A stretch of 23,803 nt of DNA from a virus (Duplodnaviria; Heunggongvirae; Uroviricota; Caudoviricetes): positions 1 to 23,803 of IMG/VR virus record IMGVR_UViG_2563366943_000008. One strand, given 5' to 3'. Of the stretch, positions 4,241-23,803 are shown piece by piece. The notes under the pieces are model-generated. The model made no database searches. It was not told the origin of the DNA and worked only from the letters and a program-made list of their open reading frames with translations. Numbering within the stretch: position 1 is the stretch's first letter; each line of letters opens with the position of its first letter. Made by a program: the position numbers and the translations under genes.

Positions 4241-4304
4241 TGGAGCACCTCAAAAACACCATCATACACTAAATCAGTAAGTTGGCAGCATCACCGGGTG
4301 ATTA

Positions 4305-6410: not shown

Positions 6411-6429
6411 CTGGTTAGCCATGGATGGC

Positions 6430-7542: not shown

Positions 7543-7565
7543 TCGACAGCATACACATTGGATAT

Positions 7566-7787
7566 TCATTTTGTGACCAATGCGATAAGTAGCGGGATAA
7601 GAATTGATAAAATCAACAGGCCGATGATCCACTTTTGATTTTCACTGGCCTTATCTCTATTTTCATCAATCTTATCAATAATTCGACGCTCCAATCCGTG
7701 CATATCACCGCGAATGGCAATCATCTCATTGCGAACATCAGGGAAGTGGTTGGCTTGATGTTCAATGTGTGGCGTTCTGCCTTTCAT
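7566..7787 (-). CDS. small protein with N-terminal coiled-coil and single C-terminal TM helix (XhlA/holin-like architecture)
   Basis: 73-aa ORF; C-terminal WIIGLLILSILIPLLIALV is a clear TM segment. Architecture resembles small prophage membrane proteins. Not verified by homology. Confidence 0.4.
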   Translation of the reverse strand: MKGRTPHIEHQANHFPDVRNEMIAIRGDMHGLERRIIDKIDENRDKASENQKWIIGLLILSILIPLLIALVTK

Positions 7788-7866
7788 ATCTGATCCTCAC
7801 CTATCGTCACTACCTGCTGGTGTATAAAGGTATTGGCCCAAGCAACTTTCCAATGGGCACTCATGT

Positions 7867-8322
7867 TTATACGCTGACCTTACAATCAATCACTGCTTTT
7901 AGCTTTTCAGCATTGCTTCCCTGACGCTTCCACGCGCTGTAAATATCTTTATCCCACGCTTTACCAGCTTTTGTTTGATAGCCTGCTTCATTGATCCGTT
8001 CAGCTATCACACGCCCATTATCAAATCCCTGTTGGATGGTATCGGCAATGATCTTTATAACTGCCGTTTCGTTATATGGTTTTGGTGGGATGTTCGGCTT
8101 TCCGGCAATAAGCGACGCAGCGGCTTTTTCCATGCGCTCCACCAGCCCAAGCATTCGTGAATCAATAGACTTTTCCGGCTGCCCCAGCTTCATGCGAATC
8201 GCATCAACAAGCCAGGAGGTTTTATCTCCTCCAGAAGCGAGAACAGACCGATTAAACTCATCCTGCAATTCAGATGGGATGCGGAACGCGACCAGATTAG
8301 ATTTGCTCATTGCAAAGACCAT
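7867..8322 (-). CDS. putative ribbon-helix-helix DNA-binding regulator with C-terminal extension
   Basis: 151-aa ORF. N-terminus NLVAFRIPSELQDEFNRSVLASGGDKTSWLVDAIRMKL fits a beta-strand / helix / helix RHH pattern. A palindromic operator-like sequence lies immediately upstream. An alternative start at 8310 (MSKSN) is possible. Confidence 0.5.
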   Translation of the reverse strand: MVFAMSKSNLVAFRIPSELQDEFNRSVLASGGDKTSWLVDAIRMKLGQPEKSIDSRMLGLVERMEKAAASLIAGKPNIPPKPYNETAVIKIIADTIQQGFDNGRVIAERINEAGYQTKAGKAWDKDIYSAWKRQGSNAEKLKAVIDCKVSV

Positions 8323-8339
8323 ATCAGTGAGTAATATCC

Positions 8340-8545
8340 ATACAGTATACCACTGTATAACACTGTTATACGCTCAAATATCAGCCAGAAAATAACGGAC
8401 CAATCACAAATCTATCGCTGTGTTGTTGGTTCAGAGCTGGGCTGTGTTGGTTCAAAATGAGTTGATGTTGGTTCAATATTTCAGAAAAAACACAATAAAA
8501 ACAACAATCTTTACAAATTGAACCAACTGAACCAACTGAACCAAC
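8340..8545. promoter_or_regulatory. divergent control region with phased iterons
   Basis: Palindrome GTATAAC-ACT-GTTATAC at 8355-8371. Three direct copies of TGTTGGTTCA at 8424, 8445 and 8467 (spacing 21-22 bp). AT-rich spacer. Three tandem inverted copies TGAACCAAC at 8519, 8528 and 8537. TATAAT at 8563-8568 just before the 8582 start. Confidence 0.55.
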
Positions 8546-8581
8546 ACCTTTTTGCTTATCTATATAATCTGAGAGGCAGAA

Positions 8582-8863
8582 ATGATAAGGGACAGGAAAG
8601 CTGAAGAGCTGGAGTCAAAAGGGCTATACCGGAGAGCTGCCGCACGATGGATGGAAGTCATGCTGTTATGCACCGAGGACGATGATCGGGAATGGATAAA
8701 GCGCCGCCGTGAAACGTGTCTGGAGAACGTGAAGCGCCCGCCCGTGAAGGTTGAGGAATTTGGCGACCTGCATAAAGCTGTTACCGAAACGCAACACCGC
8801 ATGGGGATAGCGCAACCGAACGGTAACGCCTTCCGGTTAAATGGCGGCAAGAGGCAAAGGTAG
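8582..8863 (+). CDS. small transcription-activator-like protein (PerC-family-like, tentative)
   Basis: 93-aa ORF MIRDRKAEELESKGLYRRAAARWMEVM. The N-terminal motif resembles PerC/Pch-type prophage regulators as recalled from memory. Directly downstream of the iteron region. Confidence 0.45.
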   Translation: MIRDRKAEELESKGLYRRAAARWMEVMLLCTEDDDREWIKRRRETCLENVKRPPVKVEEFGDLHKAVTETQHRMGIAQPNGNAFRLNGGKRQR

Positions 8864-8888
8864 ACCACCAGAGGGAAATCATCCTCTG

Positions 8889-8934
8889 GCTGGCGGTTTC
8901 TGGTATTTCGGGACAAGTACGCGCGCGCGTAGCA
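8889..8934. repeat. dispersed repeat with alternating CG core (copy B)
   Basis: CTGGCGGTTTCTGGTATTTCGGGACAAGTACGCGCGCGCGTAGCA. Same orientation as copy A, core GACAAGTACGCGCGCG(CG)TAGCA identical apart from one extra CG unit. Confidence 0.6.
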
Positions 8935-9160
8935 CCCAATCGGTGAGGAAATAGCGGCGACCTGAATGGTCAAAATCACAACGCAGCTATCCCCGTAAGC
9001 AGCGCTTAACGGAATAGCAGTAACCTGAATCCAGTGGGGAGGGGGTAGTCAAATCTCTACAGCCCTGACTATCCGGGACTGCCCGCCCCATCGTTTTTTT
9101 ATACCCGCGAAAAATGAAATTTAATCCGGGCGTGTTTCATTCTTCCAGAGGGTATGACGT

Positions 9161-9346
9161 ATGACACCACGCGAAATAGCCTTATTGACCATCGCCAAAC
9201 TTGAGCACGGAGGCCACCAGCTTACACAGGCAGATCAACGGGAGATAGAACGATCAGTTAATGCCGATATAGCCCGGCGCGACAGGTTCCGCGAAATGAT
9301 GCGAGCACCTGCCTACCAGTGGAAGAAGCCAGCGCCGCGCAGGTAG
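9161..9346 (+). CDS. hypothetical small protein (61 aa)
   Basis: ORF with a GAGGG Shine-Dalgarno-like sequence upstream; no recognisable motif. Confidence 0.3.
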   Translation: MTPREIALLTIAKLEHGGHQLTQADQREIERSVNADIARRDRFREMMRAPAYQWKKPAPRR

Positions 9347-9466
9347 ATATGGGATTATTCCACATGTAACTTATGCGTATTAAGCAAATTTCCTTTATTC
9401 ACCTTTACAGAATTGTGAGTACGTCAGTATCGTTATCCTTCCGATTCGCATTTATTCAGGATTTGC

Positions 9467-10009
9467 ATGTACCAGCTAAAGATAACCATCCGAGACAGCA
9501 AACCACCTATATGGCGGCGTGTGCTGGTTCCAGAGCAAATCCCCTTTAGTAAACTTCATGCCGTGATCCAGTTAGCTTTTGGCTGGAATGACGAACACCT
9601 GTATATGTTCGAGAAAGGGCGTAAAGGTGATCCAGGTAGCGAGTATCGCGTATGGGGTGAGGATGAAAGCATGGGTAACGCGGCAATCACGCCACTATGG
9701 GCGGCGCTCCAGAATGAGGGTGACAAGCTGGTTTACACGTATGACTTTGGCGACTGGTGGGATTGCGTCATTGTGCTGGAGAAGCAAACACACGATACGA
9801 GTAATCAGCCCATTAGCTGCCTGCGTGGGAAAGGCACCACCCCGGCGGAAAACTCAGGCGGCTTGCATGGTTACAATGAATTGCTATTACAGGCCAGAGA
9901 GTCTGATAATCCTGAGCAGGCCGAGATCCACAATTTCCTGATGCTGGATATTGAACGCCGGGTTTACGACCTGAGCCGCATCAACGACAGATTGCAGGCT
10001 ATTAACTGA
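9467..10009 (+). CDS. pRiA4b ORF-3-like family protein (tentative)
   Basis: 180-aa ORF containing YTYDFGDWWDCVI, which resembles the YxYDFGDxWxHxI signature I recall for the plasmid pRiA4b ORF-3-like domain. Confidence 0.45.
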   Translation: MYQLKITIRDSKPPIWRRVLVPEQIPFSKLHAVIQLAFGWNDEHLYMFEKGRKGDPGSEYRVWGEDESMGNAAITPLWAALQNEGDKLVYTYDFGDWWDCVIVLEKQTHDTSNQPISCLRGKGTTPAENSGGLHGYNELLLQARESDNPEQAEIHNFLMLDIERRVYDLSRINDRLQAIN

Positions 10010-10361
10010 CCCGCATGTATTCACCTGATATTGCGTTGTCAGCGCCGCCAGTATCGCGCATAACAGCGCACTGACCGGGTAAACCGTAGCGCACGACCGT
10101 TGCGTTAGTATCACCGCCGCGCCGTATCTGGCGCGATTCATACACTGTCACCCGCTCAAGCAGTCCACCAGCAACCATGCTTTCCAGTGTGCGCCGGGTT
10201 GATTCGAGCTGGTGACGCTTATCGAACGACACCATGCCATGAAGCAGGTAGGCCACACCCGACACATCGAACGGCGGCGCACCAATCTCACCAGTCACCC
10301 ATTCGAGGTTATCCGGTTCAAAGTAGCTAAGTATCTCTTTTTTGCGGCTGGTCATTCTCAT
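10002..10361 (-). CDS. hypothetical protein (119 aa)
   Basis: ORF convergent with and overlapping the 3' end of the 9467-10009 gene by 8 bp; AAGGA-like Shine-Dalgarno upstream of the ATG at 10361. Function unknown. Confidence 0.35.
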   Translation of the reverse strand: MRMTSRKKEILSYFEPDNLEWVTGEIGAPPFDVSGVAYLLHGMVSFDKRHQLESTRRTLESMVAGGLLERVTVYESRQIRRGGDTNATVVRYGLPGQCAVMRDTGGADNAISGEYMRVS

Positions 10362-10480
10362 GGCTGGCTGATTCCTTATTGTGGGATAGCACTATCATAC
10401 AATAAGTGGGTTAAAGGGAGAGCGTTACCGCCTGATATGCTGTATGAATAACAACCAAATTTCAGGGGCGGAAAAAGATA

Positions 10481-10501
10481 TGGGGGTACTTTTGGGGGTA
10501 T
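10481..10501. repeat. second copy of the TGGGGGTAC-N3-TGGGGGTAT motif pair
   Basis: TGGGGGTACTTTTGGGGGTAT at 10481-10501 versus TGGGGGTACTTATGGGGGTAT at 1558-1578: same orientation, one mismatch. Confidence 0.7.
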
Positions 10502-10562
10502 CTATAAAAAATGAACAATAAAAAAGGCAACAAAAACAAAGCTTATCGCCTATGTGTATTGT

Positions 10563-10582
10563 TCCTATTATCGCACAATCAA
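10563..10582. other. degenerate direct repeat of the tRNA-Thr 3' end (candidate attR core of module 1)
   Basis: TCCTATTATCG-CAC-AATCAA aligns with tRNA 3' end TCCTATTATCGGCACCATTCAA (1428-1449): 11/11 identical, then gapped similarity. Lies about 60 bp beyond the second TGGGGGTA pair. Confidence 0.45.
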
Positions 10583-11182
10583 GAAAATCAATAACTTAGC
10601 TTAACTTCTCTAAGAAATTGTATCTTCTGTTATCACTTACAAACGCCTATACGTTGTTATGGGCTTTGGTAGTGTAACACGTATGGGCGAGTAGTTCCCA
10701 GGCTCAACCTCGTAACAAGTTCCTTTGAAGCTGGAAGACGTGCCACCGTCTCTAAACCTTCTACCAAAACTCTTAGCAAGATGTTCCACACCTGGCGCGG
10801 TGTCCAATGATGCTACACGTCGTGAGACGTTGCAGAGGATAAACAGGCTAAATGATGGGAAGAGTTTTAAGTGCAATAGTGGATCAAAGCCCACCTCTTC
10901 AAAACCTAACTTGATCGGGAAAGAATCAAGCTCTAGCACGGTTTCGTCCACCGGAGTACAACGGGTGCCTGATAAGAGAAGAACTGCTAAGACTTCATAG
11001 CTTTTGTGAAAAAGCCCTTTTAGTGGATACGCCTACGGCGCTTATTTTTTGGGGTAGCCCATCAAAGGCGCTTTATGGCTCCTATTGTCTTGAAAATGTA
11101 TCTTTACTTGTATTGTGTTTTATGCGTAGTCTCCCTGTGTAGTATGTAACTTGTTAATTTTCATATGAATACAGAGGCACAC

Positions 11183-11341
11183 GATGAAAAACATTGCAGC
11201 TATCAAACGTAATAACCGCAAGATTCACGCTCGTAAGTTCCTGTCTACGCCAGAAGGAAAAGCCTGGCTAGAGCGTAAACAGAGAGAGAACGAAGAAAGA
11301 AAACTCCTTAATGAGTTGAAATGGCTTAGAGAGGATTTCTG
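11183..11341 (+). CDS. hypothetical small basic protein (52 aa)
   Basis: ATG at 11183 with GAGG 6-9 nt upstream; translation MKNIAAIKRNNRKIHARKFLSTPEGKAWLERKQRENEERKLLNELKWLREDF. Below the ORF-track size cutoff, so found by eye. Coding status uncertain. Confidence 0.25.
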
Positions 11342-12153
11342 AAAATCTCCAGAACGCAACAGGACGCATTCTAACGCTATTTTCATTGCTTGGTATAGGG
11401 ATGTATAGGTGATGTGTGTTTAATGCGTCTGTGCGCTTGTTTTGTGCCTTATTTTGCATTTTCATAATGCAGAAGAGAACACGGAAAACCTTAAAATTAA
11501 TTATTGGGGTATTTAAGGGTATTTTCAGGTGATTTAAGGGTATTAAACTTGATTTAATTGATTAAAATATAAACAGATAGTTGTGTATCTTATTGATTTA
11601 TAAGGTTATTTTTAAATAAAGGTAAATAAAAAATAAATAGCCATAAATAGCTATAAATACATCTAAATACCTATATCCCTTCCCTTATGGCTAGATTGCG
11701 AGAGGTGCTTAACGCGATTTTCAGCGCCCCCCGATCTGGAAAATCCAGAATCCCCAAATATCAGCAAGGAATTTTCTTGCGTAATCAACATCGTTTTTAC
11801 CTATTAAATCATTACACAGAAAGCCTTTCTGTAATGTCTCTCACTAAACTTTCACTAAACACGAGAATGATCGGTTTTATGTCGGATCAGATGCTAGAAA
11901 CAGCACCACGTCTCACAAGGACTGTAAGCGATGAAACCAGTGTTTATGCGGGTGCAGGTCAAAATATAGGCCAAAATCAATTTAACATAATAAACGTAAT
12001 ATGCACTAAGGAACACATAGAACGCCTTGAGTTGATGTATCAGGGGAAAAGTGATGGATTTTTTACGTAGGAGCACGAGAGGGCTTCTGTTGACTTTTGT
12101 ATGCTATGAAACATAATTAAAGGTTTTTTTGTTTTTATTGTGTGATGTAGTGG

Positions 12154-13127
12154 ATTACACAGGGGAATAGATTAAATGGTGTTCTGTTTATACAGGTTTA
12201 TTTGTTAGATCAACAATTTGGCATTTCTAAACAGATGTTTGAACGTTGCCAAATGTCTTGACAACACAAGAAAAGGGCTTGCTATGCCACGCATTACACG
12301 AAATAAGGCTGTAAAAACAAAATAAATTTTAAAATTTGCACAAACGAGAAAACTCGTTAAGAAACAAGCAGAACAATTTTTAGCCAACAATTTCTGATGG
12401 TGCTCTGTAGGCCGCACTACACAAGGATTTGCGAAAGTGATGTAAAAGTGAAGAAAGTAAGAATTGCACTTTTAAGCTACTTTTCATTGAATTTTTAGTA
12501 TGGAATTACACAGGAATAAGTTAGGGATATTCTATGATTTACACAGGGAATATAGGGGATTATGGCACACACATAGAAAGGCATTACACAGAGTGAGTGC
12601 TATGTGATGATTGGTAGTAACGGTAGGTCATAGTGAGCTAGGGGGTAGGTCACTGTGAACTACAATAAGACTATTAATAAAACTATATTAGATTATTAAT
12701 TAGATCATAATAATAATATTCTTTATATCTATATATATGATCTTTTGCCTTCCGGCGTTAGCTTCACTCTCTGGCAAGCAGCCTTACTCCGCTACCTTTC
12801 GGGCTTCGTGGCTGGCCCGTTCCGCTCACACCGAAAGCAAAGCGTTACTTTCTTCGTGTAACTTCGTTGGCGGTAACGCCCACGAAGAAATCTATTGCGC
12901 TGTGCGCAGTAAGAGTAATCACCTAACCAATCATACTGATTGCTTATGTGTTAACTCTCTCTAACTCTTAATTACCCTCCTACATTTAATAACTCTGTTA
13001 TTCTCTGTAGTTGTGTAATTACTCGAAGAGAGAGCGGCTAAAGCTCAATTACACTCTGCTTTCCTCGTGTAATTTCACTAAGCCTCAATACAATTTCACT
13101 TCCTACATTCTGTAGTCGTGTAATTGT
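12154..13127. repeat. iteron field flanking an AT-rich tract and GC-rich core (origin-like region)
   Basis: Direct copies of (A/T)TTACACAGG(G/A)AATA at 12154, 12505, 12538 and 12583, plus variants at 12293 and 12417. Inverted copies CGTGTAA(T/C) at 12855, 13012, 13066 and 13117. 17-bp repeat TCTGTAGT(T/C)GTGTAATT at 13004 and 13110. GGTAGGTCA repeats at about 12625 and 12649. Extremely AT-rich tract at about 12660-12745. Confidence 0.5.
12745..12915. ncRNA. candidate structured RNA or single-strand initiation element (strand undetermined)
   Basis: GC-rich patch inside AT-rich DNA. Hairpin CTTCGTTGGCG-GTAA-CGCCCACGAAG (12862-12887; 10 of 11 positions pair, GNRA-type tetraloop). Hairpin CGGGC-N10-GCCCG (12800-12819). 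Long-range complementarity CTTACTCCGC (12783-12792) with GCGCAGTAAG (12904-12913). The overlapping 75-aa ORF has a non-protein-like sequence. Confidence 0.25.
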
Positions 13128-13761
13128 TTTCGGTGGAAAAGCCAGAGGCGACACCGAAAGAGAATTCTGATCTTATTAATCTTATCTATCTTAGTTAATC
13201 TTCTTACTTATCTTACTTACTTTATCTACTTTATTATTAATAATAGCTTTATAAGCTCTCTGTGTAGCTCTCTGACGCAAGAAACAGCATTCAGGAAGGG
13301 AATCACCTTAGAAAAGGTGTTCTTTGCGTCATAATGTGTTTTATGAAGGATTCAGAGGTGTTTCATAACAGGAATGTATAGAGAATACTTTAGGTAATTA
13401 AAAATAAGGGGTCTAAATGCTTCTCTAACAGCATTAAGCAGGGTAGGGAATGGAAACGCATTGCCTACATATAATAAACTCACTACAGGGCTTTACAGGG
13501 CGTTTTATAAAGCGACTCTCTGTTTTATATCTACAATCACCTTTTCATATACCTAACAAATACAAAATAAGCCCCTTAAATAAGCCTCTGGCGAGCTAAA
13601 CAGACATTACATAAGAGAATGTATTGCTTTTATCAAAACTTCGTTAGAACGCGTTTTAGAGCGTTTTAGCGGATAATGAAGAATAGCACTACACAGAAGA
13701 GCACGAATTGCTAAGACAAATTATAACATGCTGAAAAAGATCGATTTTTTCGAAAAGGGTA

Positions 13762-13790
13762 TTGACAAATGTTTCTTTATATGTAATAAT
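13762..13790 (+). promoter_or_regulatory. sigma70-like promoter upstream of the rightward small-gene array
   Basis: TTGACA at 13762-13767, 16-17 bp spacer, TAATAA(T) at 13784-13790. The -35 is embedded in GGGTATTGACA, sharing the GGGTATT motif seen elsewhere in the element. Confidence 0.4.
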
Positions 13791-13903
13791 AGGTATTAGA
13801 GGGACAGAAAAACATTCTTCTCTAAATAATCAAAATCAATGCACTTTGAAGCCGTCAGGCTTGCAAGGTGTTTTATTTCTTTTAACTGAATAAGGAGTTT
13901 TTT

Positions 13904-14092
13904 ATGAAATGGTTTACACCGGAGCACGTCGTAAAGGCATTTAAAAAAGGTGAGCTTACACGCCACCAAATAGTAATGAATCGTAATATGGCAAGGAGTC
14001 GAGGTTATCCAGAGCGAGCAGCTTGCTTCAATGAAGCACTCAAGATTATTGATGAACTAAGAAAAAATGAAAAAGAATCTGAAACAGAGTAA
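13904..14092 (+). CDS. hypothetical small protein (62 aa)
   Basis: ATG preceded by TAAGGAG Shine-Dalgarno at optimal spacing; first gene downstream of the promoter. Confidence 0.5.
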   Translation: MKWFTPEHVVKAFKKGELTRHQIVMNRNMARSRGYPERAACFNEALKIIDELRKNEKESETE

Positions 14093-14111
14093 AGAAGAGA
14101 AGGAGAAAACT

Positions 14112-14282
14112 ATGAGCGAAGCTACAGAAAAGAAAAGACAACCACGCACTTGCTTTCATATTCCTGATGAAGTATTTCAGGTGTTGTTTAAAGAAGCCAG
14201 AAGTAAACGTATCACTGTTACAGATTACATTCTTGATATGTTGAAAAGAGAGGCTGAAACACTCTCAAATAAAAGCAAGTGA
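14112..14282 (+). CDS. putative ribbon-helix-helix (CopG/Arc-like) DNA-binding protein, 56 aa
   Basis: ATG at 14112 with GAAGGAG upstream. RTCFHIPDEVFQVLFKEARSKRITVTDYILDMLK fits strand-helix-helix. The ORF track starts earlier (14067) at an upstream in-frame ATG lacking a Shine-Dalgarno. Confidence 0.5.
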   Translation: MSEATEKKRQPRTCFHIPDEVFQVLFKEARSKRITVTDYILDMLKREAETLSNKSK

Positions 14283-14335
14283 TTTTTATCACCATAGTAG
14301 CGCCATAGAGCGTGATTACATCAAGGAGATTTTTA

Positions 14336-15028
14336 ATGATTAACCAACTAACTTTTACAAAACACTATGACACGTTTGATAATATATCAAAGATTTATTC
14401 TGATAAATTCCCTCAAGGAAAAGATTTAGATCTATTACATATTGTGCTTTATTTTCGATTCCTTAGTTATCAGGAAAACAACCTTAATTGTTATGAAAGT
14501 CACGAAACATTAGCTAAGATTTTTAAGTCTTCACCATCAACAATTAAACGTAAGATAAACGATCTTAAAGAGATGGGATTATTAGAAACATCCCCACATC
14601 CTGATCCGTATATTTCATCTTTGATTTACAATGCTCTCCCTCTCACAGATGCACATATTACTCCCCCAGGAGAATCATCACTCTCTGATCTTTCTGAGGC
14701 AGAAGAAGCACAGGAACAACCTAAAGGCCATAAACAGCCTTCTTTTGATGTTCTTGATGATGATTGGGATACGCCTTTACCCTGGGAGACGGAAGAAACA
14801 CCTGTTTCATCAAGTGAAAAGGTAGCTAATGATAATGAGGAGGATGTGTTAGAGAATTTTGCCTCTCTTATCATCCAGGAGAAACACAAAAGAACAGGAG
14901 GGGCATCATTTATAGAATTTGCAAATTCACTAGCTTGTAGATACGGGCTAAAACGACCAAATGGTATTGAGGCATATTTTTCTAAGCATTACCCAAATGT
15001 ATACGAAGACTTTGATATTCCCTTTTAA
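14336..15028 (+). CDS. putative winged-helix DNA-binding protein with acidic C-terminal tail (replication-initiator / replisome-organiser-like)
   Basis: ATG at 14336 with AAGGAG 9 nt upstream (ORF track starts at 14312). N-terminal segment ETLAKIFKSSPSTIKRKINDLKEMGLLE is a typical HTH. C-terminal third is strongly acidic (DDDWDTPLPWETEETP...EEDVLENF). Confidence 0.45.
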   Translation: MINQLTFTKHYDTFDNISKIYSDKFPQGKDLDLLHIVLYFRFLSYQENNLNCYESHETLAKIFKSSPSTIKRKINDLKEMGLLETSPHPDPYISSLIYNALPLTDAHITPPGESSLSDLSEAEEAQEQPKGHKQPSFDVLDDDWDTPLPWETEETPVSSSEKVANDNEEDVLENFASLIIQEKHKRTGGASFIEFANSLACRYGLKRPNGIEAYFSKHYPNVYEDFDIPF

Positions 15029-15044
15029 AAAGTAAGGAGGACTA

Positions 15045-15323
15045 TTGATACAGTATTTAATAAAAAGCAAAGTAGACAGAATTCAGTGTAACGACACAGG
15101 AAAACGCATCTACGAAACGCTTGCTTACCTCTATAAAGGAAAGCCAACACCGCTAAAATATAGCGATGTGTTACATCGAGCAGGTTGCTCTGAGTCAGGT
15201 TTAAAATTCTGGCTGAAACAGCTATCAAATTTCGGTGTTATTGAAATGAAAGAGCTGTCTTTCTCTACATTTAATCTCAAAAGACTAGATAAAGAAATAG
15301 AATTCATCTATTCCACTCTCTAA
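15045..15323 (+). CDS. small HTH-type DNA-binding protein (92 aa)
   Basis: TTG start with very strong TAAGGAGG Shine-Dalgarno 6 nt upstream. Contains a probable HTH (YSDVLHRAGCSESGLKFWLKQL). Confidence 0.45.
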   Translation: MIQYLIKSKVDRIQCNDTGKRIYETLAYLYKGKPTPLKYSDVLHRAGCSESGLKFWLKQLSNFGVIEMKELSFSTFNLKRLDKEIEFIYSTL

Positions 15324-15455
15324 AATCTCTCTATGTAATTAAAATATAAAAGGAAAACATTATTATGATAGTAGCTATGTATTGGTTATTGTTCTTTCTC
15401 ACGTTAGAAGCATATTTCGGGGTGTTTTCCTTTAAAAGAAAAGGAAAAGTAAATT

Positions 15456-15866
15456 ATGGCAAAAAGAAAAAACAACGTTGTTAAGAAAATCGGTGATTCA
15501 GCTTCTCTTCTAAGTAAACCTAAATCTATTCTAAAACGTAAAGACTTTAAAGAGCTAGTTACGCTCACCAAGCATAATAGCGCCCCTGGCGAATGGAAAA
15601 CAGAGATCATAGAACATTCTCCCTCTGTGCCTTGTGGAGATGAATATATCGCCTTACAAGAAATCTTATCTTCAACACCTGGCGTGTTCTGGAAACCTAA
15701 AAAAAGAAAAGAGTATATCGTTGATAGCTCTGATTTACGCAAATACCAGATTTTAGGATTTGAAGATTATAATCACTACGTTGGTTATCTCGCCACAAAT
15801 GGCCTAAATAATTTAGTTCCTGAATTCCAGATTTTAGATAATGCAGATCACTATGGAGACTTTTAA
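15456..15866 (+). CDS. hypothetical basic protein (136 aa)
   Basis: ATG with AAGGAAAAG upstream. Lys/Arg-rich N-terminus. Stop codon is 1 nt before the start of the next gene. Confidence 0.5.
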   Translation: MAKRKNNVVKKIGDSASLLSKPKSILKRKDFKELVTLTKHNSAPGEWKTEIIEHSPSVPCGDEYIALQEILSSTPGVFWKPKKRKEYIVDSSDLRKYQILGFEDYNHYVGYLATNGLNNLVPEFQILDNADHYGDF

Positions 15867-15867
15867 T

Positions 15868-16206
15868 ATGAACAAAAACACGTATGACACAATTTACTCA
15901 CTAATTAATTATTATGAGGATGATTACCTCCTGCCTTTAAACCGCGCTGAACTTGAAGCATACAAAGAAAACACGCCAGCGGCACTAAATGAGGCGTTTA
16001 AACACTGGGATTTAGCTGTGAATGCCTTTGAGCACCTCTCTAAGCGTGTAGAGATGCTCTGTAAGCGCGAAAACGCATACCTGACAGCCGATCAGGTATG
16101 GGAATTATCAAACTGGATAGAAGATATTGAATCTGATGTTCGCTATGTGGGAGATGGACTTGTTGAACTAGCGCAACGCTTAGGCGCTACTATCACAGAA
16201 GAATAA
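15868..16206 (+). CDS. hypothetical acidic protein (112 aa from ATG 15868; in-frame alternative starts at 15841 and 15853)
   Basis: GGAG 9 nt upstream of ATG 15868; translationally coupled to the preceding gene. Confidence 0.45.
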   Translation: MNKNTYDTIYSLINYYEDDYLLPLNRAELEAYKENTPAALNEAFKHWDLAVNAFEHLSKRVEMLCKRENAYLTADQVWELSNWIEDIESDVRYVGDGLVELAQRLGATITEE

Positions 16207-16235
16207 AAAAAGCAACAAAAAAGTTGTAAAATATC

Positions 16236-16264
16236 TTGACATTCCATCTATTGTATGTTAATAT
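16236..16264 (+). promoter_or_regulatory. near-consensus sigma70 promoter
   Basis: TTGACA (16236-16241), 17-bp spacer, TAATAT (16259-16264). Confidence 0.5.
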
Positions 16265-16270
16265 AATTAT

Positions 16271-16491
16271 ATAGGGGTGATTATTTTTCCTTTATTGGTT
16301 CGATATTAAAAATTCTTCCTGTCATTAAAGGGGAGTAAAATCTCCGCTCCCCGCTTCTTCTCCTCCTTAAGTAAATACTGTGCCATTATACCTCTTTGTT
16401 ATGCATACATCTTGGAGTATGCATAACATAGGGTAATTACATAGGTATGAGTTAATAAAAGGCGGCTTTAAATGCTGCCTTTTATTTTGCC
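16271..16491 (+). ncRNA. candidate small RNA or structured 5' leader (about 220 nt)
   Basis: Lies between the promoter at 16236-16264 and a hairpin plus T-tract at 16457-16488 (AAAAGGCGGC-TTTAAAT-GCTGCCTTTT-ATTTTG). No ORF longer than about 11 codons on this strand. Contains hairpin GGGGAG-N11-CTCCCC (16330-16352), pyrimidine tract CTTCTTCTCCTCCTTA (16355-16369), and inverted repeat TTATGCATA / TATGCATAA (16399-16426). Confidence 0.3.
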
Positions 16492-16550
16492 CGTTATACA
16501 ACTTAAAAGTTGTATTTCTTACTTTAAACAAGGTAACAAGGTTTATATAA

Positions 16551-16763
16551 ATGTTGCTCTTAAATGATAAAGAGCAAATCATCAAGTATAAAGATGAAAT
16601 GCTGAAAATTAATCCACAAATTACCGAAATGGTAGCTAAATACGCTGGGTGTTCTGTCGAGGAAGTAGAAAGATGTGTTGAAAAATATTTTTCTCCTTCT
16701 TCTCCGTCTACACCTTCCCTTAATGAATTAATCAAATTAAAAGCTAAGGAGATTACTAAATGA
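16551..16763 (+). CDS. hypothetical small protein (70 aa)
   Basis: ATG at 16551; stop overlaps the start of the next gene (ATGA). Weak Shine-Dalgarno. Confidence 0.4.
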   Translation: MLLLNDKEQIIKYKDEMLKINPQITEMVAKYAGCSVEEVERCVEKYFSPSSPSTPSLNELIKLKAKEITK

Positions 16764-17122
16764 TTATTGATTTAGACACTCTGTTTCCAGTTCGAAAGAC
16801 TTTCACGGATATTGTAAGTTATTGTACTGATCCGTTTGCCTCTGTAGAAAGCAAGGTTTTTGCTTCTCTTCCTGCTGATGTTGAGTGCGGCGACTTGATC
16901 ACCAGCACTGGCGCTAAATATGAATCAGGAGATGATATTTATGTTGTTATGAGTGAATTTGTAACGGCTGGAGAAAACAAGCCTGTAGATGTGCTACGTA
17001 GCAATGCTGGGCTTGTATGCATCAAAGCTGATGCGCTGAATGCTGTAAGTGAAGCAGCAAAAACAGCATTAATTAAAAAAGGCTTTCAGCTTGAAGGGTT
17101 CCATTCTGTTTTCACTTCTTAA
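16760..17122 (+). CDS. hypothetical protein, 120 aa (position and size compatible with a head-decoration or scaffold-like protein)
   Basis: AAGGAG Shine-Dalgarno 9 nt upstream. Immediately precedes the capsid-like gene, as gpD precedes gpE in lambda. No direct sequence support. Confidence 0.45.
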   Translation: MIIDLDTLFPVRKTFTDIVSYCTDPFASVESKVFASLPADVECGDLITSTGAKYESGDDIYVVMSEFVTAGENKPVDVLRSNAGLVCIKADALNAVSEAAKTALIKKGFQLEGFHSVFTS

Positions 17123-17140
17123 TAAAAGGAATAATAATAA

Positions 17141-18169
17141 ATGATTCTAGGTAATGATTACGTTGATTTAGCTCCTCTGTTCTCTGCGCATAGCACTAGA
17201 AATTATCTACTTTCTACTCTCGACTTCACTGATCCGGTGGGCGTTAGTTCTCATAAAGTAGCTGTTTCCCAGCTTGTCGAAAGCAACGAATCTCTCTTTA
17301 ACAAAGAGACAAGCCGTTTTAGTTCTGAACACAATGTTACTAAGCGAGAACAAGGTAAAGAATGGCTGATCGAAATCCCTTACTTCCTGCGTGAAGATGT
17401 GATCCGTCCTTCTGATGTTCAAGGCAAGCGTAAGCCTGGCACTGATTTTCAGGAAACACTCACTGATATTTATGCTGACTATGTTGCTAAACACCACGTA
17501 GCGTATCAGCGTACAAAAGAGAGCGTGCTGGCTGCATCTCTGTTTAGCGGTAAAACTTACACGCCTAAAACTGATGATGTTCTTATCGAGTGGAGCAAGC
17601 TGTTTAACGTATCAGCTATGAAAGCCACTGTGAACGCTTCCAGCACTGACACCACGAAGATTTTTAAAGAATTTGATCAGATTGCTACTGACATTATCGA
17701 AAAAGCACAGAGTCAGGCGGCGGCTGTAGAGCGAATTGTTGTTTTCTGTAAGCCGGAAGCCTTCTCTGCAATTCGATTCTCTGCTGGTATGGCAAACGCA
17801 TTCCAGTATGTAAGCCCACTGGAAGAGGGGAACGTTGTGTATCAGCGTCGTGACCTGCTGCCAGGGGTGACAGCGTTCACTATTCCAGGAACTAACATTG
17901 ATGTTGTTAAACTGGTAGATCCGCTACACCTGGCACATATGACCGCAGACGCTGTAGCTGTGCCTAAATTCTCTAAGGGTAGCGGAATTTATACCAACAT
18001 CTACGGGGCTGCTTCCAGCACCTTTGAACTGATTAATGCCGCTCCTGCTGAGGTGTATAGCTATAGCTATGAATCTTCTCGTGGTGATGCTGTTAACGTT
18101 GTTACAGAGAATAGCCAGATGGTGGTAAACCACGGTGTAGGCTTCTCCGTTCAAATCACTGTTAAATAA
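17141..18169 (+). CDS. putative major capsid protein (lambda gpE-like / HK97-fold candidate), 342 aa
   Basis: Length close to lambda gpE (341 aa). Local resemblance IVVFCKPEAFSAIRFS versus lambda IIVFDPKGWALFRS as recalled from memory. No signal peptide or enzymatic motif. Followed by a strong intrinsic terminator, consistent with a highly expressed structural gene. Confidence 0.4.
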   Translation: MILGNDYVDLAPLFSAHSTRNYLLSTLDFTDPVGVSSHKVAVSQLVESNESLFNKETSRFSSEHNVTKREQGKEWLIEIPYFLREDVIRPSDVQGKRKPGTDFQETLTDIYADYVAKHHVAYQRTKESVLAASLFSGKTYTPKTDDVLIEWSKLFNVSAMKATVNASSTDTTKIFKEFDQIATDIIEKAQSQAAAVERIVVFCKPEAFSAIRFSAGMANAFQYVSPLEEGNVVYQRRDLLPGVTAFTIPGTNIDVVKLVDPLHLAHMTADAVAVPKFSKGSGIYTNIYGAASSTFELINAAPAEVYSYSYESSRGDAVNVVTENSQMVVNHGVGFSVQITVK

Positions 18170-18187
18170 TATTTTAACGTGTAATAG

Positions 18188-18224
18188 AGGCGTGGCGTGA
18201 ATAACACGCTTCGCCTTTTTTTAT
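18188..18224 (+). terminator. rho-independent terminator
   Basis: AGGCGTGGCGTG-AATAA-CACGCTTCGCCT stem-loop (10 of 12 stem positions pair) followed by TTTTTTTATTTATTTTT. Confidence 0.75.
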
Positions 18225-18255
18225 TTATTTTTAAATTTTGAGAGGTGATTAAAAT

Positions 18256-18459
18256 ATGGAAGTGATTTTGAAATCAAAAAATGGTGTACACGTACATTTA
18301 GATGCTAATGATTCTAGAGGATTGTTAAATCTGAAATATCTCTGTTCTCTTTTAGATGTTCCCTATGAAGGAGTAAAAGCCCGTATGTTCAGATTAAACG
18401 AGAGTATTGATCAGGCTCTACACCATTTCTTAAGCAAAGAAGGTGGTAAAAATGATTAA
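18256..18459 (+). CDS. hypothetical small protein (67 aa)
   Basis: ATG with GAGAGGTGA Shine-Dalgarno-like sequence; lies between the terminator and the next gene. Confidence 0.4.
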   Translation: MEVILKSKNGVHVHLDANDSRGLLNLKYLCSLLDVPYEGVKARMFRLNESIDQALHHFLSKEGGKND

Positions 18460-19378
18460 TAAGGGGATTTTAAATGTTAGAAATTAACACTTCTAAAATT
18501 AAGAACACAGTAACATTTAGTGTAGATAAAGACAGCTTGAAAAAAGCGAAAGACTCTATTACAGGCTTAAAGGAATTTGCAGAGAATATCAAGCCAGCTA
18601 AGTTAAGGTTTGATAATGTCACTAAAGGCTATAAGAAAGCACAAAGTGAAGTAGACAAGATTGCTCAACAGAAAGCTAAAGCCGAAAAACAGAATCAAAG
18701 AGTACAAGCTGCCGCAGCAAGAGCACAGGCAAGGCAACAGCAACAAATAGCAGCACGTAAAGAGAAAGCAGAATTAAAACTCCTCGATGTGTCAAGCTCT
18801 ATCAGTGCAATGCACCGTCTCTCTGTAGCTGAACAATACAAAGCTATTGCACAGGCTAGAGAAATTGCCCTCCAATATGAAAGAGGCGCTATTAGTCTGG
18901 CACGTATGAATAGCCAGATGAAACGCTTACAACAGCAACAACGTAAGATTAATGGCAACAGAAAAGCACAATTAGCCCCCGTTAAGGGAGGATCAGGGAA
19001 TTCCGCCACTATGGGCGCTCTGTTATTTGGAGGCGCTACGGCTGCTGCTGGCGTGATGGCTGTTAGTAAAGCGTCGGAGTTTGTTAGTAGCAGTTTCGCT
19101 AACGCAGAGACCCAAGGGGAGCTAATCCAACGTGCAAGGCTTGGCGGTGTAGACGTTAACCAGATGTATAATATTACAGAATGGGCGTATAGAAACGGCG
19201 TTGACTCTATGATGGGTGATCAAGGGGCTAGGAAATACCTGGATCAGATGAAAGATGTTAGGGAACGTGCCGCAAAATCCTACAGTGAAGCTGAATTGGT
19301 GAAAGACAAGAAAACCGGAAAATCTGAATGGAAAGGCGGTGATAATGCTATTAATGAACTTCTAAACTGGATTTGCCC

Positions 19379-20284
19379 CTATATTTCCAGACATCTGTTA
19401 TCACTTAACCCATTACAAGCCCGCTGCCGCAGATATTCCCGTGGCGAGCGATAACCCAGCGCACTATGCGGATGCCATTCGTTATAATGCTCGAACGCCT
19501 CTGCAAGGTTCTTTGCTGCCGTTAACCCGTCTGGTTTGGGCATGATACTGATGTAGTCACGCTTTATCGTTTTCACGAAGCTCTCTGCTATTCCGTTACT
19601 CTCCGGACTCCGCACCGCCGTGTTCTTCGGTTCAAGTCCCAACATCCGGGCGAACTGGCGTGTTTCATTAGCCCGGTAGCATGAACCATTATCCGTCAGC
19701 CACTCCACTGGAGACGACGGAAGATCGTTGCCGAAGCGGCGTTCCACCGCTCCCAGCATGACGTCCTGTACTGTTTCACTGTTGAAGCCGCCGGTAGTGA
19801 CCGCCCAGTGCAGTGCCTCACGATCACTGCAGTCCAGCGCGAACGTGACACGCAGTCTCTCTCCGTTATCACAGCAGAACTCGAACCCGTCAGAGCACCA
19901 TCGCTGATTGCTTTCTTTCACGGCCACTCTGCCTGTATGTGCCCGTTTCGATGGCGGTACAGCAGGTTTTCGCTCAAGCAACAGCGCATTCTGGCGCATG
20001 ATCCGGTAAACACGTTTGGCATTGATCGCAGGCATACCATCAAGTTCTGCCTGTCTGCGAAGCAGCGCCCATACCCGACGATAACCATACGTGGGCAGCT
20101 CTCCGATAACATGGTGTATACGGAGAAGCACATCCGTATCATCAGTGTGACGACTGCGGCGGCCATCCATCCAGTCATCGGTTCGTCTGAGAATGACGTG
20201 CAACTGCGCACGCGACACCCGGAGACAACGGCTGACTAAGCTTACTCCCCATCCCCGGGCAATAAGGGCGCGTGCGCTATCCAC
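19379..20284 (-). CDS. insD: IS2 OrfB (InsD) transposase catalytic (DDE) domain; expressed as OrfAB by frameshift
   Basis: 301-aa ORF overlapping insC; sequence matches IS2 InsD. Confidence 0.88.
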
Positions 20285-20607
20285 TTTTTTGCCCGTCCAT
20301 ATTCAACGGCTTCTTTGAGGAGTTCATTTTCCATCGTTTTCTTGCCGAGCAGGCGCTGGAGTTCTTTAATCTGCTTCATGGCGGCAGCAAGTTCAGAGGC
20401 AGGAACAACCTGTTCTCCGGCGGCGACAGCAGTAAGACTTCCTTCCTGGTATTGCTTACGCCAGAGAAATAACTGGCTGGCTGCTACACCATGTTGCCGG
20501 GCAACGAGGGAGACCGTCATCCCCGGTTCAAAGCTCTGCTGAACAATTGCGATCTTTTCCTGTGTGGTACGCCGTCTGCGTTTCTCCGGTCCTAAGACAT
20601 CAATCAT
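20242..20607 (-). CDS. insC: IS2 OrfA (InsC) transposase N-terminal / regulatory protein
   Basis: 121-aa product [53 protein letters not shown] matches IS2 InsC (HTH). Confidence 0.9.
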
Positions 20608-21673
20608 CTGCTCTCCAATGACTAGTCTAAAAACTAGTATTAAGACTATCACTTAAATAAGTGATACTGGTTGTCTGGAGATTCAGGGGGCCAGTCTATA
20701 AACATCGGTGTTATTAACAAAAGCGACCTTAAAAAATTTGCTGATAATCCGGCTGGATTAATTTCTAAGGCTGTTAATGGAATGATGAAAAAAGGGTTTT
20801 CAGACTCCCAAATTGGACAACGTTTAGAAGACCTGGGCGATGATTTGATGCTTACGTCAAAATATTGGCAACGTTCCGTTAAAGATGTACAAGAAAGTAT
20901 TAATCAGCAAAAAGCCTCTGGAAAATGGCTAACAGAAACACAGCAAGACTCTATTGTTAAATTCAGAGAACTAAACAGACAGCTTTCACAGCTTTCTGAT
21001 GCAAGACAAGTAGCATTCGTAGACGGCTTTATGAAATCTCTCGATCCAAAAGTAACGGAAGAGTTTATGAAAAACCTTTCTAATCTCACTCCGTATTTTA
21101 CGAAGCTGGGAGAAGCTACAGGAAGTCTCTTTGAAGCTATTATGAAGATTGTAAACTGGTTTAATCGTAATGATGATAAGACAGATGCTATTCAGAAAAA
21201 TATGGGTGATGCACCGCCATTAAGCAATGAAGGGATGAAACAGAATCTTTCTAATCTCGTTCCTAATCAATATAAAGGCGCTGGCACTGCAACAACTACA
21301 CCTGATAATAGTCATTCTCTCTTTAACACAATTAAGGGATTGCTTTTCGATGATAATTCTTCTGTGTCAGATGTAAAAATGTCAGTCAATGAAGCACCGA
21401 TAACCAATCTCAAACAGGGTGCTTTAAATAATCTTGCAATGACAACTCCAGCTTATAATTTATCTCCTGTGTTTAATCTGAATCCTACATTTGAAGTGGT
21501 AACAGAAGTGCCGCTAACTATCGAATCAGACACCGGACGATTGAGCGATTATGTGGATTTTACAGCGAGAGCAAGTCGGGATAGCTTCTTGAAATCATTA
21601 ACATTAACCAGCTTATCAGGACAATCCAACGGCGGGTAATTCCCGCCATAACATTACAAGGAAAATTATTATT

Positions 21674-22387
21674 ATGGCGACCGCCGGGATTTTAACCATA
21701 CGTGCAGCAAATACTCCAGAACAACACGTTCAGGCTGTTTACAAAGCAGAACAAGATATAAATTCTACAAAAAACGAAAATAGCAAAGCTAATAAAACAA
21801 AAGGAGAGAACGGATTTGCTATTGTTACCAGTGGCTTGGCATCTTCTGGTAATGACGTTTATGAAAATTATATGGCACTGGCCTTTGATAGTGTTGACGA
21901 TGTGAACGTGAGACGTTCGGCAGATGTCACAAGCTACCCCGTAGAAAATGGTGCTACTGTGTCTGATCACGTTCAAATTAAAAACAATAAGTTCTCTCTT
22001 AAAGGGCGTATCACTGAAACACCGATTAAAAGCGATCCTGGCTTGTTAAAGAGTGCAGGGGTGAACGGGAACAGAAGATCATTAGCTATAGACTACTTGA
22101 ATCAGATTATGGACAGTAGACAGCCTTTTCTTCTTGTTACAGAAAATAAAACTTTTGAGAACGTTGTTTTAACAGGCATCGAATACACAGAAGAGGCAAG
22201 CGAATCCCTGGTATTTGATCTTAGCTTTGAACAAATAAGATTAGTTTCTTATGGTACTGTAAACACTGTAGCTATCAAAACACAGCCATCTAAGAACATC
22301 GGGGCGAATATGAAAAAACGTGTTAACACTGAAAAATCAAGTAGTGAAGGTGAAGACACTATTACTCCTGCCTTTAAACAGGAATAG
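21674..22387 (+). CDS. hypothetical protein (237 aa), predicted beta-rich
   Basis: ATG with AAGGA upstream; last gene of the rightward array. No recognisable motif. Confidence 0.45.
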   Translation: MATAGILTIRAANTPEQHVQAVYKAEQDINSTKNENSKANKTKGENGFAIVTSGLASSGNDVYENYMALAFDSVDDVNVRRSADVTSYPVENGATVSDHVQIKNNKFSLKGRITETPIKSDPGLLKSAGVNGNRRSLAIDYLNQIMDSRQPFLLVTENKTFENVVLTGIEYTEEASESLVFDLSFEQIRLVSYGTVNTVAIKTQPSKNIGANMKKRVNTEKSSSEGEDTITPAFKQE

Positions 22388-22428
22388 CCGTAAATGCCTC
22401 TAAAACGCTCTGTAACGATGTAATTATA

Positions 22429-22461
22429 AAAGAGGCTACCAATCTATGTTGAAGCCTCTTT
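22429..22461. terminator. bidirectional hairpin between convergent genes
   Basis: AAAGAGGCT-N15-AGCCTCTTT, a perfect 9-bp stem, located 8 nt beyond the integrase stop and about 40 nt beyond the 237-aa gene stop. Confidence 0.5.
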
Positions 22462-22468
22462 ATTGCGT

Positions 22469-23803
22469 CTATGGCGTTGTTTTGCGCATTAAATTTGATT
22501 TTTTATTGATTGATAAGCCTTTCTCTATTTCAGGGTAGCGTAGAAGCTCAATATAGTTTTTAAGCTCTACTGGAGAAGCTGCATTCTTGCTATATGTGCG
22601 GAATGTCTCTGTATTGCCGCGTGTATGGCCCAGGAGAAGGGCGATCCTGTCTTCTGGAATTTGATTTCGATCAAGAAGCTGTGCTACTCCGTGTCTCAGA
22701 GAATGAAACACCTTCCTTTCTGTTCCCTTTTCCCCTAAAGCCTTTCGTTTAGCTCTTGTAAATCTCTGCGTGTGCCACGTGGAACGTTTACCATCAGCAC
22801 GCTCTGTAATGCTGGCGTGATAGAACAAAAAGCCATTATGAGGCTTTTCACGCAGCGACAACACCAACGGAGTGATAAGGCTATGCACAGGCACAAGACG
22901 TGCCGCAGCTTTCGTTTTTCCCTGTGTGATTTCAAAACACAGCACACCTTCGATCTCTTTCACATCGTCTATTGTGAGACTTGCTATCTCATTGATCCGC
23001 ATACCTGTATAAGCACCGATAAGACACAAAGCCATCATTTCTTTGTTTTCTGCTGAATCACCGGAAAATACTTGCAACACCTGCAATAGCTCTTTGTTAG
23101 AAAATGCCTCGTAGCTCTCTCTACTTTGTGCCACATCAAGCCTATGCCCTCGCCAGGGGGAGAGCGCCCTTTCTGGCGCATCGTGGTAACGTGATGAAGC
23201 TAACTCCCATAGCTGGGCCATTGGGCTGATATAATTTGCAATTGATTGTTGTGAAAGGGTTTTTTGCATGTGTTCTATCCAGCCTGTAACAGTGGTGCGG
23301 CTTACATCTTGCAATGCAATATCAGGCTTTTTACGGTAGGAGAGAAACATCTCTACCGCTTTTCTTGCCTTAGCTAAAGTGGCTGGCTTCTTCTTCGTGC
23401 TGTTAATTGTCAGGTAGATTTCAAGAATTTTAAGCAATGACGGACACGAAGACGCTGTATCTTGCATTCTGGTAGCTGTTTTGGCGTATTTAGCCTTACT
23501 GCGTAACAGTTCCAGCGTGTTCTCTATTGTGCTGTTTACAGGGGCGACACTCTCCCGTAGACAATGGTATTCATCTGCAATCTGATCACGCTTTCTACGT
23601 GCAACACGAAGACTACTTGTGTGCAGACTTCTGACAAACGTCCTTTTTCCTTCAAAAAAGGGCTGCATATACACAGGCAACGTGATCCTCAAATAGTAGT
23701 TACCGTAAGAATCACAGATTATGTATTGATTGGGCTTGTATCTCATAAACTCCCCGGCTAAAGTGTCGGAGCGTTTGTAATGTGAAAATTGATTGTAACG
23801 CAT
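22469..23803 (-). CDS. tyrosine integrase / site-specific recombinase (second, distinct family), 444 aa
   Basis: Start ATG at 23801-23803 (window edge). C-terminal catalytic motifs GMRINE, HSLRHGVAQLL, LLGHT and a downstream Tyr typical of tyrosine recombinases. Clearly different sequence from the first integrase. Confidence 0.85.
   Translation of the reverse strand: MRYNQFSHYKRSDTLAGEFMRYKPNQYIICDSYGNYYLRITLPVYMQPFFEGKRTFVRSLHTSSLRVARRKRDQIADEYHCLRESVAPVNSTIENTLELLRSKAKYAKTATRMQDTASSCPSLLKILEIYLTINSTKKKPATLAKARKAVEMFLSYRKKPDIALQDVSRTTVTGWIEHMQKTLSQQSIANYISPMAQLWELASSRYHDAPERALSPWRGHRLDVAQSRESYEAFSNKELLQVLQVFSGDSAENKEMMALCLIGAYTGMRINEIASLTIDDVKEIEGVLCFEITQGKTKAAARLVPVHSLITPLVLSLREKPHNGFLFYHASITERADGKRSTWHTQRFTRAKRKALGEKGTERKVFHSLRHGVAQLLDRNQIPEDRIALLLGHTRGNTETFRTYSKNAASPVELKNYIELLRYPEIEKGLSINKKSNLMRKTTP

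Follow-up and report, generated by a model that had tools for sequence, protein, structure and literature searches.

A capsid and cement gene operon in a small integrative island of Escherichia coli: candidate head module of a phage satellite related to Stephanstirmvirinae

Introduction

When a capsid-like gene closes a short operon in a bacterial chromosome, the question is to what kind of element it belongs. This question is raised by a stretch of 23,803 nucleotides (nt) filed among the viruses as IMG/VR record IMGVR_UViG_2563366943_000008 (positions 1 to 23,803; hereafter, the window), in which a preliminary description, made from the DNA alone, had noted an operon of genes for proteins of 70, 120 and 342 amino acids (aa) and had framed the surrounding element as a prophage. 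The window is Escherichia coli chromosome downstream of proA and tRNA-Thr and is 100% identical to the isolate AF3 (locus L001). All coordinates refer to the window, position 1 being its first letter, and features lie on the plus strand unless stated otherwise.

We find that the operon almost certainly encodes a capsid protein together with a head-associated cement protein, and that it belongs to a discrete integrase-bearing island of about 11.8 kb. It is rather probable that the operon is the head module of an integrative phage satellite of about 12 kb, the helper of which would most likely be a virulent myovirus similar to phi92 and phAPEC8. The capsid call itself is already known, as RefSeq names the 342-aa gene 'major capsid protein'; what is new is the element surrounding the operon.

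Results

Genes of the head operon

The operon comprises the genes of the 70-aa protein (16551–16763), the 120-aa protein (16760–17122) and the 342-aa protein (17141–18169). The first two open reading frames (ORFs) overlap by 4 nt (ATGA), the start of the 120-aa gene being preceded by AAGGAG at a distance of 8 nt, and the 342-aa ORF starts 18 nt past the stop of the 120-aa one. The operon is closed by an intrinsic terminator (18186–18225), a GC-rich hairpin of 13 pairs (18186–18218; −20 kcal/mol, z-score −3.9) which begins 16 nt 3' of the 342-aa stop and is followed by seven T. Thus, the closely spaced or overlapping genes and the strong terminator of the preliminary description are borne out, although its end point, 18224, drops the final T of the terminator tail. 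A hairpin with a T-run is found 3' of the capsid gene in most of the relatives checked (Klebsiella, Serratia, Citrobacter, Enterobacter and other E. coli types) and likewise in the phage phiWec188, while the family member from Sodalis has an atypical structure at this place.

The 342-aa protein matches the Pfam family PF03864 (Phage_cap_E) with 53.5 bits, the gathering cut-off being 22.9; the match spans residues 19–341 and profile positions 14–329 of 329 and is thus essentially full-length. It also matches phrog_29 (major head protein), and the PF03864 domain is carried by all 50+ relatives in the family. The family profile, built from an alignment of 19 members, had Phi92_gp124 as its top full-length match among PDB sequences (E 4.6e-19), and 9zbi_A, a solved 344-aa 'Capsid protein' of a length close to that in the family, was second (E 1.3e-16). 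Direct comparison with the capsid protein of phiWec188 yielded 21.6% identity over 334 aa (E 7e-8). The AlphaFold model has modest confidence (pLDDT 70, pTM 0.70), and with Foldseek it matched solved phage capsids, namely those of PhiTE, Bas63, Sf14, ICP1, YSD1, Chi and lambda gpE, with probability 1.0, E down to 2e-17 and TM 0.6–0.67. The preliminary description had tentatively taken this protein for a capsid protein of the lambda gpE type, a reading that a fold other than HK97 would contradict; the predicted fold is HK97, in agreement with the Pfam, PHROG and profile matches, and we regard the capsid assignment, drawn from the predicted structure and sequence similarity, as sound.

The 120-aa protein had no direct family match in Pfam, PHROGs or NCBIfam, its family had no significant match among PDB sequences, and a profile comparison with the 130-aa protein encoded upstream of the phiWec188 capsid gene showed no similarity. 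An exhaustive profile search retrieved only 20 relatives among 1.8 billion representatives; two remote ones match phrog_2680, 'head decoration'. The predicted fold is of the gpD type, the length falls in the range of about 110–150 aa, and the gene adjoins the capsid gene. Thus, with sequence comparisons having failed, it is the predicted fold and the transitive PHROG link that lead us to propose, with moderate confidence, a gpD-like decoration protein. Of the two roles suggested earlier for a gene in this position, decoration and scaffold, the former is favoured, and the protein would bind the assembled shell as cement.

The 70-aa slot is occupied by a gene for 66–74 aa in every family member. 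The E. coli protein is 43–44% identical to its counterparts from Enterobacter and Citrobacter and 23–31% identical to the others; it has no significant match in Pfam, PHROGs, NCBIfam or PADLOC, and no relatives were detected outside the element family. Its gene is translationally coupled to the 120-aa gene, and it could be an accessory in assembly or regulation.

Purifying selection acts on all three genes, that is, they are maintained. Between E. coli variants differing by about 5% at the DNA level, the ratio of nonsynonymous to synonymous substitution rates (dN/dS) is 0.04–0.15 for the capsid gene, 0–0.10 for the 120-aa gene and 0.11–0.50 for the 70-aa gene, and for the genes of the element overall it is far under 1 in nearly all pairs.

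Extent and distribution of the element

The element has a G+C content of 38.8%, as compared to 54.9% for proA. In the window it begins at about 10563, behind an unrelated island, with a repeat of the 3' end of tRNA-Thr (TCCTATTATCG, 10563–10573, found by comparison of the attachment (att) repeats), and it extends beyond the end of the window, as the right att repeat lies about 94 nt further (position 25698 of L001). In locus L002 (STEFF_1, NZ_CP048609) the element directly abuts tRNA-Thr, with a 20-bp repeat at the 3' end of the tRNA gene, whereas in L003 (Res13-Lact-EA06-22, NZ_CP062910) it resides within srsR, between 52-bp direct repeats situated 11.8 kb apart.

The element starts with a 52-aa ORF and about 2.6 kb devoid of annotated genes. 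These are followed by an early or replication module (13904–15028; Pfam, PHROGs, RefSeq), which consists of two small genes (62 and 56 aa) and a gene for a 230-aa winged-helix protein (HTH_36) resembling replication initiators, and by three small genes of no assigned function. Then come a 344-nt leader, the head operon, a 67-aa gene (18256–18459), a 610-aa gene, the gene of a 237-aa Dit-like tail-tube initiator (21674–22387; PF21821, 101.9 bits) and, on the minus strand, a tyrosine integrase (22469–23746; PF00589, PF20172, PF13102). The 610-aa protein is a tape-measure homologue, the gene of which is split in the window into a 5' part (18474–19367; profile scan and RefSeq) and a 3' part (20698–21639; RefSeq and alignment with the phage protein) by an insertion sequence, IS2, on the minus strand (19368–20697; RefSeq annotation of L001). 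It is uninterrupted in L002 and L003; the window copy, with this gene split, is probably not fully functional.

The element was found in 314 of the 5426 complete E. coli genomes (about 6%). The same gene order (about 70 aa, about 120 aa, capsid, about 65 aa, 610–650 aa) is repeated in Klebsiella, Serratia, Sodalis, Citrobacter, Enterobacter and metagenome contigs, with capsid identities of 37–98% across the family, from E. coli to Serratia and Sodalis. The tube-initiator gene is present in some members only, and members differ in the recombinase, which in Sodalis is a serine recombinase, and in the insertion site.

Searches of Pfam, PHROGs and NCBIfam assigned none of the ORFs of the element to a terminase, portal, protease, scaffold, sheath, tube or lysis protein. 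In the interval 10563–23803 the only ORFs over 240 aa other than the capsid gene are the tape-measure homologue and the integrase, and the capsid protein is the sole match to head or packaging proteins of the kind found in cf-PICI satellites. The gene set of a complete phage (terminase, portal, head maturation, tail, lysis) was detected neither in the element nor in at least 30 related loci, and the element is accordingly not a complete phage or prophage. The prophage framing of the preliminary description does not hold: what the window contains is an integrative island with no detected terminase, portal or tail-structure genes beyond the tape-measure and Dit homologues.

Protein similarity to Stephanstirmvirinae

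A tblastn search with the 610-aa protein yielded 27–38% identity to genes annotated as tape measure in virulent myoviruses of about 145–150 kb from Stephanstirmvirinae (Phapecoctavirus and the phi92-like Justusliebigvirus). The intact protein from L003 aligns with its phiWec188 homologue end to end (27% identity, E 2e-47), and among PDB sequences the 610-aa protein matches Phi92_gp134 (E 1.5e-34). For the Dit-like protein, identity to the product of the gene located directly after the phiWec188 tape-measure gene is 53% (E 1e-70), and its PDB matches are Phi92_gp135 (E 2e-78) and the PhiTE tube initiator (E 2.7e-13). The structural genes of the element thus keep the phage order, with the intervening genes removed.

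The early module shows the same affinity. Its 56-aa protein is 43% identical to muut_153 and the HTH_36 protein is 27% identical to muut_154, which are adjacent and in the same order in a phi92-like phage (the intervals compared were 14112–15028 of the window and 2339–3556 of locus L014). Hence, relatedness to the lineage of the putative helper extends beyond the structural genes, and in total five proteins of the element have homologues in Stephanstirmvirinae. At the DNA level, comparison of the operon region (16200–18480) with 50,697 phage records produced no match, so the link to phages is visible only at the protein level or in short sites.

A DNA site shared with the phage terminal repeat

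One such site lies in the gene-poor region upstream of the early module (11686–11765; blastn, alignment and profile). A blastn search of this region against phages gave a 46-nt match with 95.7% identity to many Stephanstirmvirinae genomes, and the 40-mer at 11696–11735 is exactly positions 318–357 of phi92. The direct terminal repeats of phi92 are annotated at 1–343 and 148270–148612, and the record ends at ...GCGTTA; from these repeat coordinates and this end, the physical right end of the phage lies within the shared block, at GTGCT|TAACG when read in the orientation of the element. The 40-nt identity therefore straddles the repeat boundary (343|344), and the predicted cut in the element is 11709|11710.

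In an alignment of the site from phages of E. coli, Citrobacter and Klebsiella hosts and from the elements of E. coli, Klebsiella and Enterobacter, GTGCTTAACG and, 41 nt downstream, AAATATC are invariant. The core 10-mer GTGCT/TAACG occurs once per locus. The site profile is present in most loci of the family, always on the strand of the capsid gene and 5.1–6.8 kb upstream of it; a degenerate copy occupies the same relative position in Serratia, and in Klebsiella, where blastn of the gene-poor region gave no terminal-repeat match, the site was recovered by motif and profile search. In the phages whose records start at the physical end (phi92, W22, PHB05 and phi1_175008), the site is situated about 290–368 nt from the left end.

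In E. coli, an unannotated 127-aa ORF (MARLREVLNAIFSAPR..., 11687–12070) starts at the site. As the start codon of this ORF is not conserved in other genera, we treat the shared site as a DNA-level feature, while a short peptide conserved between the phages and the element might also be encoded here. The most economical reading is that the site would be a recognition and cleavage site of the helper terminase copied by the element.

Promoter and leader of the operon

Upstream of the operon there is a sigma-70-type promoter-like site (16236–16264; TTGACA, 17 nt, TAATAT, with TG before the −10 box), which agrees with the consensus at 10 of the 12 positions, this agreement being the evidence for it, and which resembles the promoters preceding the structural genes of phiWec188. 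The leader contains a perfect 11-bp inverted repeat, GTTATGCATAC and GTATGCATAAC separated by 8 nt (16398–16427; repeat search), a candidate operator or RNA hairpin, the arms of which pair when the leader is folded. It also contains a terminator-like structure, a 13-pair stem followed by a T-run (16454–16492), about 60 nt before the first ATG. The folding energy of the leader RNA (16271–16498) is −66.8 kcal/mol, with a z-score of −5.2 relative to shuffled controls. In all relatives checked the leader is 340–880 nt long, and by eye a hairpin with a T-run precedes the operon in the aligned members from Klebsiella, Serratia and Sodalis.

With a strong sigma-70-type promoter followed by a structured leader of about 220 nt with its own terminator, expression of the head operon would probably be gated. 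The arrangement suggests control by repression, antitermination or a separate small RNA. The terminator past the capsid gene would hold the capsid and cement proteins in excess over the products of the downstream tail genes, as in related phages.

Other features of the element and its surroundings

The 67-aa gene has a conserved position between the capsid and tape-measure-like genes and a dN/dS of 0–0.03 within E. coli. Its product shows no similarity to that of the 82-aa gene preceding the phage tape-measure gene, and a helix-turn-helix-like pattern recognized by eye (LLNL..LC..L.I.Y..V..R) points to a small regulator that binds DNA rather than to a tail chaperone.

The gene-poor region (11342–13904, about 2.6 kb) has no annotated gene, no ORF over 127 aa and a G+C content of 34–39%. 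It contains four copies of ATTACACAG on the same strand (11811, 12154, 12505 and 12583), where chance would give 0.2, as well as short tandem repeats at 11500–11541 and 12622–12662, and it may be an origin of replication. A gap of this kind, 1.1–2.6 kb long, is present in all family members. An Rfam scan of the window identified tRNA-Thr alone.

Members from genera other than E. coli encode at their left end, beside the site resembling the terminal repeat, a short minus-strand protein (183–205 aa) with a Phage_integrase domain, in addition to the full integrase or serine recombinase (2968–3585 in L004, 4166–4726 in L011, 3138–3689 in L006, 3576–4133 in L007). We considered this gene as a core gene of the family and rejected it: it is present in Klebsiella, Enterobacter, Serratia and Sodalis, and the E. 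coli type lacks it.

Between tRNA-Thr and the capsid element there is a separate island (1445–10562) with a tyrosine integrase (1610–2824), IS1 (3543–4240), a 701-aa 'P22-gp16 family phage DNA ejection protein' (4305–6410), a PerC-family regulator (8582–8863) and a pRiA4b ORF-3 family protein (9467–10009). An ejection-protein gene of podoviruses, standing alone in a small island with an integrase, could be the mark of a further satellite or of a defence element.

Discussion

A probably helper-dependent element

Four features characterize the element: it is flanked by att repeats, essential virion genes are undetected, five of its proteins are of the helper type, and it has a 40-nt copy of the phi92 terminal-repeat end. 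We think it likely that it is a satellite-like mobile element dependent on a helper, rather than a remnant. As it has no terminase, portal, protease or scaffold, sheath, tube or baseplate genes, transmissible particles would be possible only during infection by a helper, which would supply the portal, terminase, scaffold and the rest of the tail. In the mechanism that we propose, and to which we give about an even chance, the shell of the satellite assembles around the portal of the helper, the helper terminase would cut and package satellite DNA at the copy of the terminal-repeat end (11686–11765), and helper tails would be added, possibly built on the tape-measure and tube-initiator homologues of the satellite itself. 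It is from the genes and sites described above that we infer dependence on a helper, a capsid of small size, for which about T=4 would suit 12 kb, packaging at the shared site and control of expression by the leader.

Several observations weigh against this interpretation. The capsid protein is only about 22% identical to that of the putative helper and equally close to capsids of the Pseudomonas Pakpunavirus type, so that it is not obvious that it would fit the portal and scaffold of the helper. Sodalis, Citrobacter (L010) and some E. coli variants lack the shared site in its strict form or have only a degenerate version of it, a search for the left boundary of the phi92 terminal repeat gave no match in the element, and, as the site begins the 127-aa ORF, it could have a function other than packaging. 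Twenty IMG/VR loci and three metagenome contigs of 11–12 kb with the capsid gene included no free, circular or terminally defined form; all these contigs look chromosomal or fragmentary, and neither excision nor particles nor packaging was seen in the sequence datasets examined. Nor is there an obvious reason for a satellite to bring its own tape measure.

If the operon were simply left over from a decaying temperate phage, one would expect a parent prophage, and no member of the family with terminase, portal or tail genes was seen; hence, none is in evidence. The initial prophage framing, the IS1 and IS2 insertions in and around the window copy and the island-rich tRNA-Thr locus, next to another phage-like island, would suit such a remnant. 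However, from E. coli to Serratia and Sodalis one finds the same minimal gene set and order, the att repeats being intact and the integrases different, dN/dS of the structural genes is 0.0–0.2, and the relatives of these genes come from virulent phages of 145–150 kb, not temperate ones. One minimal architecture with intact att repeats, under strong purifying selection across genera, argues against a decaying prophage, and we consider this explanation very improbable. Shells with the HK97 fold are able to self-assemble, and encapsulins appear low in the list of fold matches; a self-sufficient compartment, or a particle similar to gene-transfer agents, formed without any helper, should thus be considered as well. 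Yet the top matches in both sequence and fold are phage capsids, and the encapsulin identity was rejected on these grounds. Neither cargo nor a partner of the encapsulin type is present, the genes lie beside homologues of tail proteins, an integrase and a terminal-repeat site of a phage, and the portal and terminase, which are required for DNA packaging, are absent. We see hardly any chance for this reading.

Of the rival explanations, an island that interferes with phages deserves more attention, and still we find it unlikely. In this case, the head and tail homologues and the terminal-repeat site would be mainly decoys poisoning the assembly and packaging of phi92-like phages, to the benefit of the bacterial population, with no transfer in particles. 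The homologues are diverged versions of helper parts that form multi-subunit assemblies, for which dominant-negative subunits are plausible, the shared site could titrate the terminase, and a packaged form was found neither in IMG/VR nor among metagenome contigs. In known satellites, too, interference is paired with transfer (PMC10690885, PMC11364771). Against this, a complete and strongly conserved pair of capsid and cement genes with an expression architecture typical of capsid genes exceeds what decoys need, and the element moves among sites and genera with its own recombinases, a spread that needs a vehicle. A PADLOC scan of ten small or regulatory proteins of the element matched no defence system beyond generic helix-turn-helix hits.

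Comparison with known systems

The head pair resembles those of lambda (gpE and gpD), phi92, PhiTE and Sf14, where a cement gene of about 110–130 aa, a capsid gene of the HK97-fold Phage_cap_E family and a terminator follow each other. It differs in that the capsid protein is only 21–25% identical to any phage capsid and that the genes reside in a 12-kb island with no portal, protease or scaffold, or terminase.

P4 and PLE reshape the capsid protein of the helper with the scaffolds Sid and TcaP and encode no capsid protein. Similarly to P4 (helper P2) and PLE (helper ICP1), the element is small and integrative and would rely on virion genes of a helper; ICP1, like the putative helper here, is a virulent myovirus, and its capsid (8g1r) falls in the same structural clade as that of the element. 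Unlike P4 and PLE, the element encodes a capsid protein, and no homologues of their hallmark genes were detected by Pfam, PHROG and NCBIfam scans. A classical PICI or P4-like identity was rejected: the integrase and HTH_36 are present, with no match to AlpA, primase, TerS, Sid, Psu or Delta. Packaging of P4 depends on its carrying the cos site of the helper (PMC10690885); where P4 has copied the cos of P2, the element would have copied a candidate terminal-repeat site of a phi92-like phage.

Capsid-forming satellites build the capsid shell themselves and rely on the helper for the other virion parts (10.1101/2022.09.08.507074 and PMC10690885). The element likewise encodes its own capsid protein, but its share is limited to the capsid and cement proteins, together with homologues of two tail proteins, which those satellites lack. 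[quoted passage not shown] So was that of a Mulch/Flayer-type satellite, since this type carries terminases, portal, protease and connectors (PMC10690885). The nearest published analogue found is TG93, a Vibrio 'PISP' element: a plasmid of about 11 kb, free of an integrase, which encodes 'Capsid protein E', a protease, a small terminase and a regulator similar to MerR. It was missed by SatelliteFinder, and its satellite status is predicted from sequence (PMC13230959). Both are small, have a capsid protein outside a full head module and are sequence-based predictions; in contrast to TG93, the element is integrated, has no match to a protease or small terminase, and possesses tape-measure and tube-initiator homologues.

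Searches of the open full-text literature, subscription-only papers lying outside their scope, found no description of the element, of the accessions of its proteins or of a Stephanstirmvirinae satellite. It is an evenly balanced proposition to us that these elements constitute a new family of satellites of Stephanstirmvirinae, widespread in Enterobacterales and following a mixed strategy, with their own capsid, cement and tape-measure proteins and sometimes a tube initiator. Such a family would escape current tools, as RefSeq calls most of its genes 'hypothetical'. If the satellite interpretation is true, the element would be intermediate between satellites that reshape the helper capsid (P4, SaPI, PLE) and those that build and fill heads of their own (cf-PICI), which raises the question of how a capsid protein with 22% identity co-assembles with a foreign portal and scaffold. 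The shared 80-nt site would be a candidate packaging signal for Stephanstirmvirinae, for which we found no experimental description of one. Phages of the phi92/phAPEC8 type are widely used in collections for phage therapy and biocontrol; if a satellite of these virulent phages is common in E. coli and its relatives, it could reduce the phage yield and move DNA between strains during treatment.

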